A stretch of 64,000 nucleotides of DNA, taken from positions 1,536,001 through 1,600,000 of the forward strand of contig OZ244044.1 of NCBI GenBank assembly GCA_965215275.1, given 5' to 3'. This document shows positions 25,098 through 43,811 of this stretch, piece by piece. The notes beneath the pieces were generated by a model. That model searched no databases. It had not been told where the DNA came from and worked only from the letters and a program-made list of their open reading frames with translations. Source of the stretch: Thermodesulfobacteriota bacterium (lineage in GTDB: Bacteria > Desulfobacterota_D > UBA1144 > Nemesobacterales > JAJCZQ01). The position numbers and the translations under genes are program-made. The number at the start of each line of letters is the position of its first letter. Within the stretch, counting starts at the first letter, position 1.

Positions 25098-25127
25098 TTG
25101 ACATTCGTTCATAATACTTGGTAAAAT
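25098..25127 (+). promoter_or_regulatory. Sigma70 promoter of paralog 2
   Basis: TTGACA-18bp-TAAAAT with extended -10 TG; conserved at 43656-43685. Confidence 0.7.
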
Positions 25128-25173
25128 ATCAATGTTATGAAAAATCCAAACATAAAAACACGTAGTTCCATTA

Positions 25174-25182
25174 CCCCCCCCC
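25174..25182 (+). repeat. Poly-C tract 1 (C9) in leader of paralog 2
   Basis: Counted directly; the frame from ATG 25137 stops at TAA 25221-25223. Confidence 0.85.
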
Positions 25183-25243
25183 ATGTATACCTGACCTTTC
25201 AGCCTGGTATAAGTATTCTGTAAGAAAAATGTTTAAGATAATA

Positions 25244-25252
25244 CCCCCCCCC
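25244..25252 (+). repeat. Poly-C tract 2 (C9) in signal-peptide region of paralog 2
   Basis: ATG 25229 is one base out of frame with the main ORF; C8 or C11 restores MFKIIPPPSKSLLTLVLFLLFIISMAAKG. Confidence 0.85.
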
Positions 25253-25301
25253 ATCTAAGTCATTACTAACTTTAGTCTTATTTCTTCTGTTTATAATTTC
25301 T

Positions 25302-28300
25302 ATGGCTGCAAAAGGACAGAGCAGCTTAGAAGAAACATTATCTGAATGCAGAGGAATGAGTTCAGACACGGAAGATCCGTTATACGGATGTCAGTGGCAT
25401 CTGAAGAACACGGGGCAGTTAAGTATTTCCGGAAAGAGAATAACAGCAGGAGAAGATATAAACATAGAGGGAGTGTGGAACGAAGACGTATACGGTACCG
25501 GAATTAACGTAGCAATAGTAAGTGACGGTATCGACCTTTCTCACGAGGACCTTTCTGATAAGGTCCGTTCCGGACCGAACTATGATCTTTCTGACAGTTC
25601 ATCCTTTACCGGAACACGAGCGGCAGGTGTAATAGCAGCAACTGGATATAACGGACTGGGAGTAAGAGGAACAGCACCTGGTGCGAGTATATACAGTTAC
25701 GGGTTAACTGGTGATCTCAGGGAAGCGGACGCAAAAGATGCAATGGTCCGTAATAAGGAAATAACTGCTGTATCGGTTAACGGCCGGGGATCTGAGGAGG
25801 GAGCTTTTTTTCAGGAGGCTTCAACTTCCTGGGAAGAAGGAGTGGAACTTGGTATAAGTAAAGGGTTTTATGGTAAAGGTGTGTTTTACGTCCGGGGAGC
25901 AGGGGACGGGCATGAGAATAACGATCAGGCTAATTTTTCTGAATATTCTAATTACTACGGCGTAACTGCCGTGTGTTCAACAGACGGCTTTGGAAAGAAG
26001 AGTATATTTTCAGAAGAGGGAGTAAATCTATGGGTATGTGCACCTGGTTCTGATATTGTAACTACAGATAACAACAACGATTACGTTGTAACTTCCGGAA
26101 CATTTCTATCAGCTTCACAGGTTGCAGGAGTGGCAGCACTGCTGAGAGAGATAAACGGGCAGCTGAGCTGGAGGGATGTAAAGCTTATACTTGCGGGTTC
26201 AGCACGGCAGAACGATTTTTTTGACATGAGCTGGGAGACAGGAGCTGTTAAATACGGTTCTGATACGGAAAGATATAAATATAATCCTAAGTATGGTTTT
26301 GGCGTGGTAGACGCAGAAGCAGCCGCAGAACTTGCCAGAAGCTGGAAAGGCGTAGGTGAAATGAGGACCGTTACAGCTTCTTCAGATAATGAACTGACAA
26401 TCCCTGATGGAGAAGGAGAAGCAGACGGTGTCCTTGTCTCCAGACTTATGATACCGGACCTGGAAGAAACAACATTTACGGAGTTTGTAGAAGTAGAACT
26501 TGTTTTCTCGTGTGACTGCTTACAGGACCTTAATATACAGATAACCTCTCCTTCCGGGACAGTGTCTGAACTTGTGCGGGAGTTTGCCGGGGAGTCTGTA
26601 AGTGGATCTTCAAATGAAGAAGAAAACTGCGTCAGTTACCTGAGAAGAACACATCGTTTCGGGTCGGCTAAACACCTCGGAGAAGACCCTTCCGGAGAAT
26701 GGATCCTTAAGATCTCCGATACTGCTTCCGGAGATGAAGAAGATGGAAAAAACACTGTTACCTTACACTCATGGAGCGTTAAGGTGTATGGGAATTTTTA
26801 TCAGGGACATGGCAGTGAGACAGGTACTAAACATCATGAAATAACCTTTGGTGGTGCAACGATAGATAATCAAGTATATAAAGTAGGTAAAACAATAACA
26901 CCATTAGAGCTACCTAACGCAACAAGAACAGGAGGGGGTACTTTCAGTCTTGCATTGTCTCCTCGTTTATTACCTGCTGGATTGAGTCGTAACGGCAGAA
27001 CTATAAGTGGAACACCAACTGCACCGAAGCAAGAGACTACTTATAGATGGATTGCTTCTATAGGACATGATAATACTGAGATAAGGTTCAACATCACGGT
27101 AGAAGCTAACACAGAACCCACCTTCTCAGGAGCAACTGTCCCAGATCAGATATGGACGGAAGGGGTAAGGATACCAACGTTACGTCTTCCTAATGCAACA
27201 GGAGGTAACGGAACTTTAACATACTTTTTAAGTCCTTCGCAGCCAGTTGGTATAAACAGACAGGACAACAGGTTATCCGGAACACCTACGGAACCTAAAG
27301 GAAGAACTCGTCATACATGGACAGTCAGAGACGAAGATGGTGATGAAGATATTATTGAGTTCTATATTACTGTAAGAGATAAAGATGACGTACCGAGCTT
27401 CGGCAGTGAGACTGTAGAAGATCAGGTGTATGTTGTACGCTCAATAGCAGGTCTTCCAGTAACTCTGCCAGAGGCAACGGGAGGGAATGGAGCATTAACT
27501 TACATTTTACTTCCTTTTTTACCTCGTGGATTGAATTTTGATCCTGACACCCGAGTAATAAGTGGCACACCCACCCGTGCATCCCCTATTAGGAATATGA
27601 TACATACAGTATCAGACATAGATGGAAGTAGTGCTCAATTAGAGTTCAGGATAACAGTAGAACCAAACACGGAACCAACCTTCGGCAATGAAACTATAGA
27701 TAATAAGGTGTACATTAACGGCATTACAGCAGTAATGGAAACACTGCCTGAAGCAACGTCAGGGAATGCACCATTAACTTACAGTTTAACTAGTCTTGGG
27801 TTAATTGATCTTAATTTACCTCGTGGATTGAATTTTGATCCTGACACCCGAGTGTTAAGTGGAACACCCAACCTTGACGCACACGCACGAATACTTCCTG
27901 TAACTCGTACATATACATATAAAGTAACAGACAATGATGGAGATACAGCAGAGATAACGTTCAGTATAACAGTAGAAGAAGACAGCGAACCGGACTTCAG
28001 CGGTGTGACAATACCAGATCGTGTGTACACGGGGAGAACAATAGAGCTGCCAGAGGCAGCGGGAGGGAATGCACCGGTTACTTACAGTATAACACCTGGT
28101 CTGCCAGCTGGATTGATATTTAACGAAGTAACGCGGGAAATAAGTGGGACACCCAGGAGTGCATCATCTGCTGCTTCTTACACGTATACGGCAACAGACA
28201 GGAATGAAGATACGGATACATTGGATTTCATGCTCAGTGTAGAGGTTACTTCTACTCCAGGACCAACAACAGGAAGACCAGGAACGTCAGGTACTGATTC

Positions 28301-28439
28301 AGGCGGAGGTGGAGGAGGATGTGCCGTATCAGAGCAGAGCAGCGTTGCTTTTGATATTCTCGGAGTAATGACATGTCTGATACTTATACCTGTATCAGTA
28401 GCTATCAGAAGGAAGAGAAGAGCTCAGATAAAGACATAG
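25302..28439 (+). CDS. Surface protein paralog 2: inactive kexin-like S8 domain, P-domain, 5 Ig-like repeats, Gly6-Cys/TM tail; real start upstream across poly-C frameshift
   Basis: DPLYGCQWHL, LSWRDV, YGFGVVDA, P-domain GEDPSGEWILKISD; triad positions read VAIVSDG, FTGTRAAG, SGTFLSA. Confidence 0.85.
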   Translation: MAAKGQSSLEETLSECRGMSSDTEDPLYGCQWHLKNTGQLSISGKRITAGEDINIEGVWNEDVYGTGINVAIVSDGIDLSHEDLSDKVRSGPNYDLSDSSSFTGTRAAGVIAATGYNGLGVRGTAPGASIYSYGLTGDLREADAKDAMVRNKEITAVSVNGRGSEEGAFFQEASTSWEEGVELGISKGFYGKGVFYVRGAGDGHENNDQANFSEYSNYYGVTAVCSTDGFGKKSIFSEEGVNLWVCAPGSDIVTTDNNNDYVVTSGTFLSASQVAGVAALLREINGQLSWRDVKLILAGSARQNDFFDMSWETGAVKYGSDTERYKYNPKYGFGVVDAEAAAELARSWKGVGEMRTVTASSDNELTIPDGEGEADGVLVSRLMIPDLEETTFTEFVEVELVFSCDCLQDLNIQITSPSGTVSELVREFAGESVSGSSNEEENCVSYLRRTHRFGSAKHLGEDPSGEWILKISDTASGDEEDGKNTVTLHSWSVKVYGNFYQGHGSETGTKHHEITFGGATIDNQVYKVGKTITPLELPNATRTGGGTFSLALSPRLLPAGLSRNGRTISGTPTAPKQETTYRWIASIGHDNTEIRFNITVEANTEPTFSGATVPDQIWTEGVRIPTLRLPNATGGNGTLTYFLSPSQPVGINRQDNRLSGTPTEPKGRTRHTWTVRDEDGDEDIIEFYITVRDKDDVPSFGSETVEDQVYVVRSIAGLPVTLPEATGGNGALTYILLPFLPRGLNFDPDTRVISGTPTRASPIRNMIHTVSDIDGSSAQLEFRITVEPNTEPTFGNETIDNKVYINGITAVMETLPEATSGNAPLTYSLTSLGLIDLNLPRGLNFDPDTRVLSGTPNLDAHARILPVTRTYTYKVTDNDGDTAEITFSITVEEDSEPDFSGVTIPDRVYTGRTIELPEAAGGNAPVTYSITPGLPAGLIFNEVTREISGTPRSASSAASYTYTATDRNEDTDTLDFMLSVEVTSTPGPTTGRPGTSGTDSGGGGGGCAVSEQSSVAFDILGVMTCLILIPVSVAIRRKRRAQIKT

Positions 28440-43655: not shown

Positions 43656-43685
43656 TTGACATCCGTTCATAATACTTGGTAAAAT
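43656..43685 (+). promoter_or_regulatory. Sigma70 promoter of paralog 3
   Basis: TTGACA-18bp-TAAAAT, near-identical to 25098-25127. Confidence 0.7.
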
Positions 43686-43731
43686 ATCAATGTTATGAAA
43701 AATCCAAACATAAAAACACATAGTTCCATTA

Positions 43732-43741
43732 CCCCCCCCCC
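43732..43741 (+). repeat. Poly-C tract 1 (C10) in leader of paralog 3
   Basis: Counted directly; keeps ATG 43695 in frame with ATG 43788. Confidence 0.85.
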
Positions 43742-43802
43742 GTGTATACCTGAACTTTCAGCCTGGTATAAGTATTCTGTAAGAGCAATGTTTAAGATAA
43801 TA

Positions 43803-43811
43803 CCCCCCCCC
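43803..43811 (+). repeat. Poly-C tract 2 (C9) in signal-peptide region of paralog 3
   Basis: Leads to TAA 43815-43817; C8 or C11 restores PPPSKSLLTLVLFLLFILVIAAKGQ in frame with 43915. Confidence 0.85.

Follow-up and report, generated by a model that had tools for sequence, protein, structure and literature searches.

The leader of this gene consists of two promoter–ATG–poly-C cassettes in tandem, an organization missed by the sequence-only reading, which had seen two poly-C tracts in series and proposed an AND-gated phase-variation switch. The same leader is present on 28 paralogs, which by their sequence appear to encode an S8-like, catalytically dead family of surface proteins. Our main reading, to which we assign a probability of roughly 0.47, is that slippage drives a leaky AND switch, in which an in-frame tract 2 would be obligatory and tract 1 would set the output to full, reduced or near-zero. 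The window, i.e., the whole stretch of 64,000 nucleotides that was analyzed, is part of a single 1,990,023-base contig (C1; genome positions are given as C1:position) that is 99.87% complete. The features of the leader and its gene are listed in Table 1.

Table 1. Two-tract leader and encoded protein, in window coordinates.
Feature	Position	Strand	Basis or remark
Promoter P1, sigma-70-like TTGACA-18-TAAAAT with extended -10 (TTGACA 25098-25103, 18 nt, TAAAAT 25122-25127)	25098..25127	+	predicted from sequence
ATG1, putative near-leaderless start, without SD	25137..25139	+	sequence
Tract 1, C9	25174..25182	+	read-through requires 3n+1
Early stop TGA, used when tract 1 = 3n+2; 34 nt upstream of ATG2	25192..25194	+	
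Putative relic promoter P2, CTGACC-17-TATTCT	25191..25219	+	weak promoter-like site
Late stop TAA, used when tract 1 = 3n (present state); ends 5 nt before ATG2	25221..25223	+	
ATG2, in the read-through frame, 9 nt past the P2 -10 position, without SD	25229..25231	+	
Tract 2, C9	25244..25252	+	3n+2 required in this copy
Signal-peptide hydrophobic core and predicted cleavage region	25254..25316	+	by inspection of sequence
Peptidase_S8-like domain and proprotein-convertase P domain (P_proprotein)	25494..26783	+	Pfam, furin alignment, family alignment
He_PIG Ig-like repeats, then Gly-run-Cys / transmembrane / basic anchor-like C-terminal tail	26784..28439	+	Pfam
Two-tract leader of the next paralog in the window	43656..43811	+	tract 1 = 10, in frame; tract 2 = 9, OFF

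In a promoter scan, P1 reaches 11 of 12 consensus matches plus the extended -10, and it lies within the top 0.2% of the background in 28/28 paralogs. Nine nucleotides separate its -10 box from ATG1 in every copy, and the duplex predicted with the anti-SD upstream of ATG1 amounts to merely -2.9 kcal/mol. Over the paralogs, tract 1 ranges from 9 to 13 and tract 2 from 8 to 12 nucleotides, and the two lie 61 nt apart in this copy. The hydrophobic core SKSLLTLVLFLLFIISMAAKG is in frame with the main ORF (25302-28439, 1045 codons). On re-checking the sequence, the promoter, start, tract and frame coordinates given earlier prove exact throughout. Two other start codons were set aside: ATG 25302, which lies beyond the hydrophobic core, and ATG 25183, which is private to this copy and runs into a stop after three codons. 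RNA structure in the leader was ruled out as well, as it is unstructured (z +0.93).

Frame arithmetic from ATG 25137 over tract lengths of 8-11 at both positions gives read-through solely when tract 1 is 10 and tract 2 is 8 or 11, resulting in 1100 or 1101 amino acids. With a tract 1 of nine, translation stops after 28 amino acids, and with eight or 11 it stops after 18 or 19, irrespective of the length of tract 2. The earlier claims that a single frame between the tracts is stop-free, that full translation from this start needs tract 1 = 3n+1 and tract 2 = 3n+2, and that this copy is OFF/OFF are thereby borne out; at 9/9, the copy presently specifies a leader peptide of 28 amino acids (ORF 25137-25223). 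In 28/28 copies, both OFF frames of tract 1 terminate 5' of tract 2 when read from ATG1, so no change of length in one tract can make up for a shift in the other. It is on this lack of compensation that the AND idea really rests. The ON class of tract 1 is 3n+1 in 24 of the 28 copies, and indels of 6, 9 and 12 nt 5' of tract 1 preserve the frame. Eight of the 28 pairs have tract 1 in frame, six have it in the early-stop frame and 14 in the late-stop frame, the modal state. An in-frame tract 2 is found in 5/28, and both tracts are in frame in just one copy (C1:1028883), compared to 1.4 expected under independent tract states. Six of the 24 single-tract family members are ON, and this difference from 1/28 agrees with the earlier suggestion that serial tracts make ON rare. 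A side observation is that the base 5' of tract 2 is an A in some of the 28 leaders and has been absorbed into the run in others; an absorbed base shifts the ON length of tract 2 from 8/11 to 9/12, which could tune the ON probability around the modal length of 9.

The tracts belong to a genome-wide excess. C/G runs number 5262 at length 4, 787 at length 5, 78 at length 6 and zero at length 7, and then 139 at length 8 or more, with a mode of 9. As in contingency loci, these homopolymers stand far above the genomic background and tract length sets the frame of an otherwise intact gene. A proportion of 56 of the 139 long tracts makes up 28 pairs, and every pair carries this leader. By the likeness of its tracts and frames, the leader likely works like SSR phase variation. 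Long C runs also show a strand bias, with 109 on the + and 30 on the - strand (two-tract genes: 26/28 on +). A second paralog family, TPR-like by eye, has an internal poly-C at a shared position (C1:19539, 20737, 31554, 1069001, 1899949, 1901573, 1914739 and 1964984).

Two rival readings concern the tracts themselves. The first, that they are homopolymer assembly errors and the genes are truly in frame, is highly improbable. Five public runs, taken as contigs, contain at least 78% of the words of the region and may include the source sample; none is recorded as RNA. At this copy's own leader, which no public contig crosses, contigs break at the repeat and pool paralogs, and the tract-1 lengths that they contain (9, 10, 11 and 13) all match paralogs in the assembly. 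Although the sequencing platform is not on record either, contigs of two runs (X1 and X4) cross both tracts of the uniquely flanked leader at C1:319664 (11/10) and the single tract at C1:315447 (9) without any difference and with zero gaps, reproducing out-of-frame lengths at C1:319738 and 315447. At the C1:319664 pair, a third run (X2) breaks off in a poly-G tip where tract 1 lies, and a fourth (X5) has no coverage. The out-of-frame lengths are thus real at the C1:319664 locus, which settles the concern about assembly error for that paralog rather than for the copy in the window. The completeness of the assembly argues in the same direction, as do the long A/T runs, which mostly lie within unbroken ORFs (188 of 272 A/T runs of at least 8, next to 72/78 C6/G6 runs and 26/139 long C/G runs).

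The second of these readings, in which the tracts are inactive, a frozen or drifting residue of gene conversion, on genes that are for the most part silent cassettes or early pseudogenes, appears very unlikely. It could account for the identical lengths in the runs spanning the tested locus: within-locus length variation was absent in the one locus-specific test, made at the C1:319664 pair on contigs, which drop rare alleles. MutS and MutL are intact, so slippage rates should be lower. The anchor tail is contained in one ORF in 25 of the 28 two-tract genes, the other three bodies having no tail in frame, and one two-tract copy lacks part of the S8 domain. Nevertheless, 15 copies with identical flanks (9+9) differ in tract 1, which varies from 9 to 13 among these paralogs, and in none of the 28 leader copies has a tract decayed below 8. 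The median dN/dS is 0.29 over the first 470 codons (276 pairs of 24 copies, the four remaining copies belonging to other subfamilies or having a large deletion), which indicates, at the sequence level, that the bodies of the two-tract genes are under purifying selection.

The second cassette occupies the 61 nt between the tracts and is built from a -35-like hexamer, 17 nt, a -10-like hexamer, 9 nt, an ATG, 13-16 nt and poly-C. An nhmmer profile of this segment gives 28 strong matches, all between two tracts, and five weak extra matches, two of which are stand-alone promoter–ATG–poly-C cassettes. The double leader is found on three coding subfamilies. A near-consensus promoter with a start 8-10 nt later precedes 27 of 83 single tracts, and cassette 1 is joined directly to the signal core in C1:652456, 421717 and 633539. 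From these arrangements, we infer a probable tandem assembly of cassettes, with swapping and collapse at the tracts. The same three members, together with C1:436336 and 431149, have a cassette 1 ending in a single tract without cassette 2, which fits a deletion between tracts. Stand-alone cassettes with promoter, 9 nt, ATG and poly-C that resemble the second module occur at C1:384592, 496990, 828763, 899122 and 1401695, one with a tract of C26; the frames or fragments behind these five are presumably DNA-methyltransferase-like, judging from their motifs.

A close rival of the leaky switch, and a real possibility, is a strict AND: P2 and ATG2 would be dead relics of the duplication, ATG1 alone would be used, both OFF frames of tract 1 would be silent, and the share of copies that are on would be roughly 1 in 9 to 1 in 25. 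The state of P2 is consistent with this, as it has 8/12 matches in this copy, is not called by the promoter scanner and ranks in the top 3.7% of the background. It is within the top 1% in just 4/28, and six of the 28 copies no longer have the A or T of the -10. Strict use of ATG1 would also agree with the missing SD at ATG2 and with the ON/ON count expected from independent states. What a dead relic explains less well is that ATG2 is kept in 28/28 copies while neighbouring bases vary, and that the late stop falls at -1 to +5 nt of ATG2 in 27/28, in one divergent copy by a shift to a TAATG overlap with ATG2. Moreover, P2 is near consensus in four divergent paralogs (C1:206495, 289951, 319664 and 1505400). 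Circumstantial support for initiation at ATG 25229 comes from the invariance of ATG2, its place in a relic promoter cassette, the normal length of the signal peptide that it would give (about 29 amino acids) and the stop that precedes it by 5 nt in the modal OFF frame. Of the proposed AND switch, the contingency-type leader and the AND logic from ATG 25137 stand, and the support for this second start may count against a strict reading of it.

The geometry would also suit re-initiation. The late-stop frame ends next to ATG2, and the other OFF frame stops 34-40 nt 5' of it in 25/28 copies. By analogy, these gaps match those of E. coli constructs, in which, according to an excerpt of PMC10666635, re-initiation fell by 80-100% when the gap was 38 nt and by 5-70% when it was 2 nt. 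The construct scheme in that excerpt includes an SD, unlike ATG2 here. Of the 649 long ORFs in this genome that have intergenic sequence upstream, 227 are preceded by an SD-like motif, compared to 15% in shuffles, and 46 of the 67 gene pairs with a -4/-1 overlap have none; a 5-nt gap between stop and start is not enriched genome-wide.

An unlikely alternative is a single translational switch with a promoter tuner, in which the protein is made from P2 and ATG2 and tract 1 either alters promoter strength, like the sabA T-tract (excerpt of PMC4081817), or is a passenger. Besides this precedent, the position of tract 1 (ending 8 nt 5' of the P2 -35 here and 8-12 nt in 28/28 copies) and the normal signal peptide from ATG2 argue for it. 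Yet P1 is the near-perfect promoter and P2 the decayed one, the ATG1 frame is kept open as far as ATG2, and in the three members where cassette 1 meets the signal core directly, P1 and ATG1 are what remains.

Selection on the two start routes was assessed by simulating 87 substitutions on a spanning tree of 24 haplotypes; gene conversion makes all such nulls crude, and the 28 paralogs are not independent of each other. The read-through frame is open in 24/24 haplotypes, with a P of 0.015 under even site rates and 0.024-0.029 under observed, permuted or shifted rates. This is the most robust conservation signal, and it is a further point for the strict AND. Retention of ATG2 starts at a P of 0.003 and weakens to 0.07-0.15 with permuted or shifted rates, and the late stop goes from 0.015 to 0.05-0.07 under uneven site rates. 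Read-through from ATG1 is hence the firmer selection signal, and the signal for use of ATG2 is borderline. Constraint on the amino acids between the tracts was not seen (8/41 changes synonymous, versus 22/108 expected).

In the leaky AND, slipped-strand mispairing would alter the length of both C runs, and P1 would yield a near-leaderless mRNA that is translated from ATG1. With tract 1 at 3n+1, read-through would be full and the protein would carry a long signal peptide. At 3n, the leader peptide would end 5 nt before ATG2 and allow partial re-initiation, and at 3n+2 the stop about 35 nt upstream would leave little or no output save for residual P2 activity. For any protein bearing the signal peptide, an in-frame tract 2 would be a precondition. 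Over 28 paralogs, about one copy per cell would be fully on and a few would be expressed at a low level, so that the cell surface varies.

The product is related to kexin/furin-type S8 proteases (PDB furin and kexin), with which it shares similarity over the S8 and P domains (E 2.6e-30). Unlike in these enzymes, the triad is lost in 27/27 scorable two-tract copies, and Ig-like repeats and a membrane-anchor-like tail are added. Aligned to furin, the catalytic Asp/His/Ser read Ser/Thr/Phe in this copy. Against sorting-signal models, the tail stays below the cut-off for Synerg-CTERM (11.8 vs 22.5 bits) and JDVT-CTERM (11.4 vs 27 bits). A BLAST survey of the genome gives 64 family ORFs, some of them fragments. 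An intact triad is present in 0/27 scorable two-tract members, 1/21 scorable single-tract members and 6/7 S8-bearing ORFs without a leader tract, counts that leave out one double, three singles and five fragments without the domain. From the sequences, loss of the triad appears to go with leader tracts as a pattern rather than as a test, the groups being related by descent. The tract-free members include C1:528225, 609924, 797023, 1363456, 521939 and 670057, and expressed over the family, the triad is kept in 6/7 of them versus 1/48 scorable tract-bearing ones. Switchable dead copies beside tract-free copies that keep the triad suggest variable adhesins or decoys beside constant proteases. Internal runs of G13 (C1:518332), G11 (518941) and C17 (668442) on the coding strand lie at or near breaks in family members with largely intact S8 catalytic motifs. 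Positions 2-1426 of the window correspond to the C-terminal part of another member, C1:1533632, with a single C13 tract that is in frame.

The leader was not found in any other organism covered here. The closest outside relatives are 38-47% identical, come mostly from Dehalococcoidia genomes and in most cases have intact catalytic motifs. A C/G run of at least 8 upstream of the match was absent at the 5 metagenome and 24 genome loci with such S8 proteins. The leader motif had zero matches in metagenome contigs, and the protein had no match in the four genomes of the same family, two of which are 80-83% complete. The full promoter–ATG–poly-C pattern had one match in one other genome. Tract pairs 40-70 nt apart occur in three of 100 other genomes of the order, none with this leader: the matches in one (G007) lie at contig ends, the match in another (G013) ends at a contig end, and the pairs in the third (G067), two in number, are real but differ in design. 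The latter genome, of another family, has two paralogs (loci L052 and L055) with, on the coding strand, a G9 seven bases before the ATG and a G9 inside a signal-peptide-like stretch. A separate expansion of single tracts is found in G011, also of this order, whose 2-Mb genome contains 87 runs of exactly C9/G9 and no pair 40-70 nt apart.

Phase variation commonly relies on one repeat per gene, with a chance of about one in three of being ON. Stacking two non-compensating repeats, leaky or not, would be a simple way to tune how many family members are shown per cell, and the double-tract leader could serve as a synthetic-biology part. We also consider, as a rather doubtful proposal, a two-key lock that arose by cassette duplication, with ON at about 1 in 25 per gene and about one variant shown at a time over 28 decoy-protease paralogs; the tracts would double as junctions where other members gain the lock or have it collapsed out. 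If true, this would amount to near mutually exclusive antigenic variation by statistics alone, without an expression site, recombinase or silencing machinery. Searches of the open-access literature gave no description of a tandem promoter–ATG–homopolymer leader with an internal start that recurs over a paralog family.

Its elements do have counterparts, which are compared here as far as excerpts of the cited papers describe them. Campylobacter jejuni NCTC11168 has 29 poly-G/C tracts (PMC4965091) with a modal length of 9 (PMC3401435), and in both systems the reading frame is set by C/G homopolymers of at least 8 whose modal length is 9. Here, however, there are 139 tracts, about five times the number in NCTC11168; MutS and MutL are intact, about 50 tracts lie in leaders of one paralog family, and 28 pairs are serial. 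Two repeats on one gene are already known, namely in sabA, JHP1272/HP1353 and flgR. Helicobacter pylori sabA combines a T-tract rheostat in its promoter with an on/off CT repeat in the 5' coding region (PMC4081817, PMC2715451). It resembles the present leader in being an adhesin gene with two repeats, of which the downstream one is the master switch and the upstream one may adjust the level. Unlike in sabA, both runs here are poly-C and both would be translated from ATG1, and tuning would be translational, via the stop of the leader ORF. Nor is tract 1 placed as a rheostat of the sabA type, as it adjoins the -35 of P2 but lies inside the ATG1 frame, and P2 is weak. The Type IIG enzymes JHP1272 and HP1353-54 of H. 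pylori and flgR of C. jejuni carry two homopolymers in one coding sequence (PMC3936762, PMC3930126). As in the leader described here, these are two serial frameshifting homopolymers, and the full-length product requires both to be in frame. In the excerpts, these are single genes, and the second repeat of JHP1272 adds a C-terminal specificity domain. In the present family, by contrast with JHP1272 and flgR, the signal core comes after both tracts, which enclose an internal start, and 28 copies share the design.
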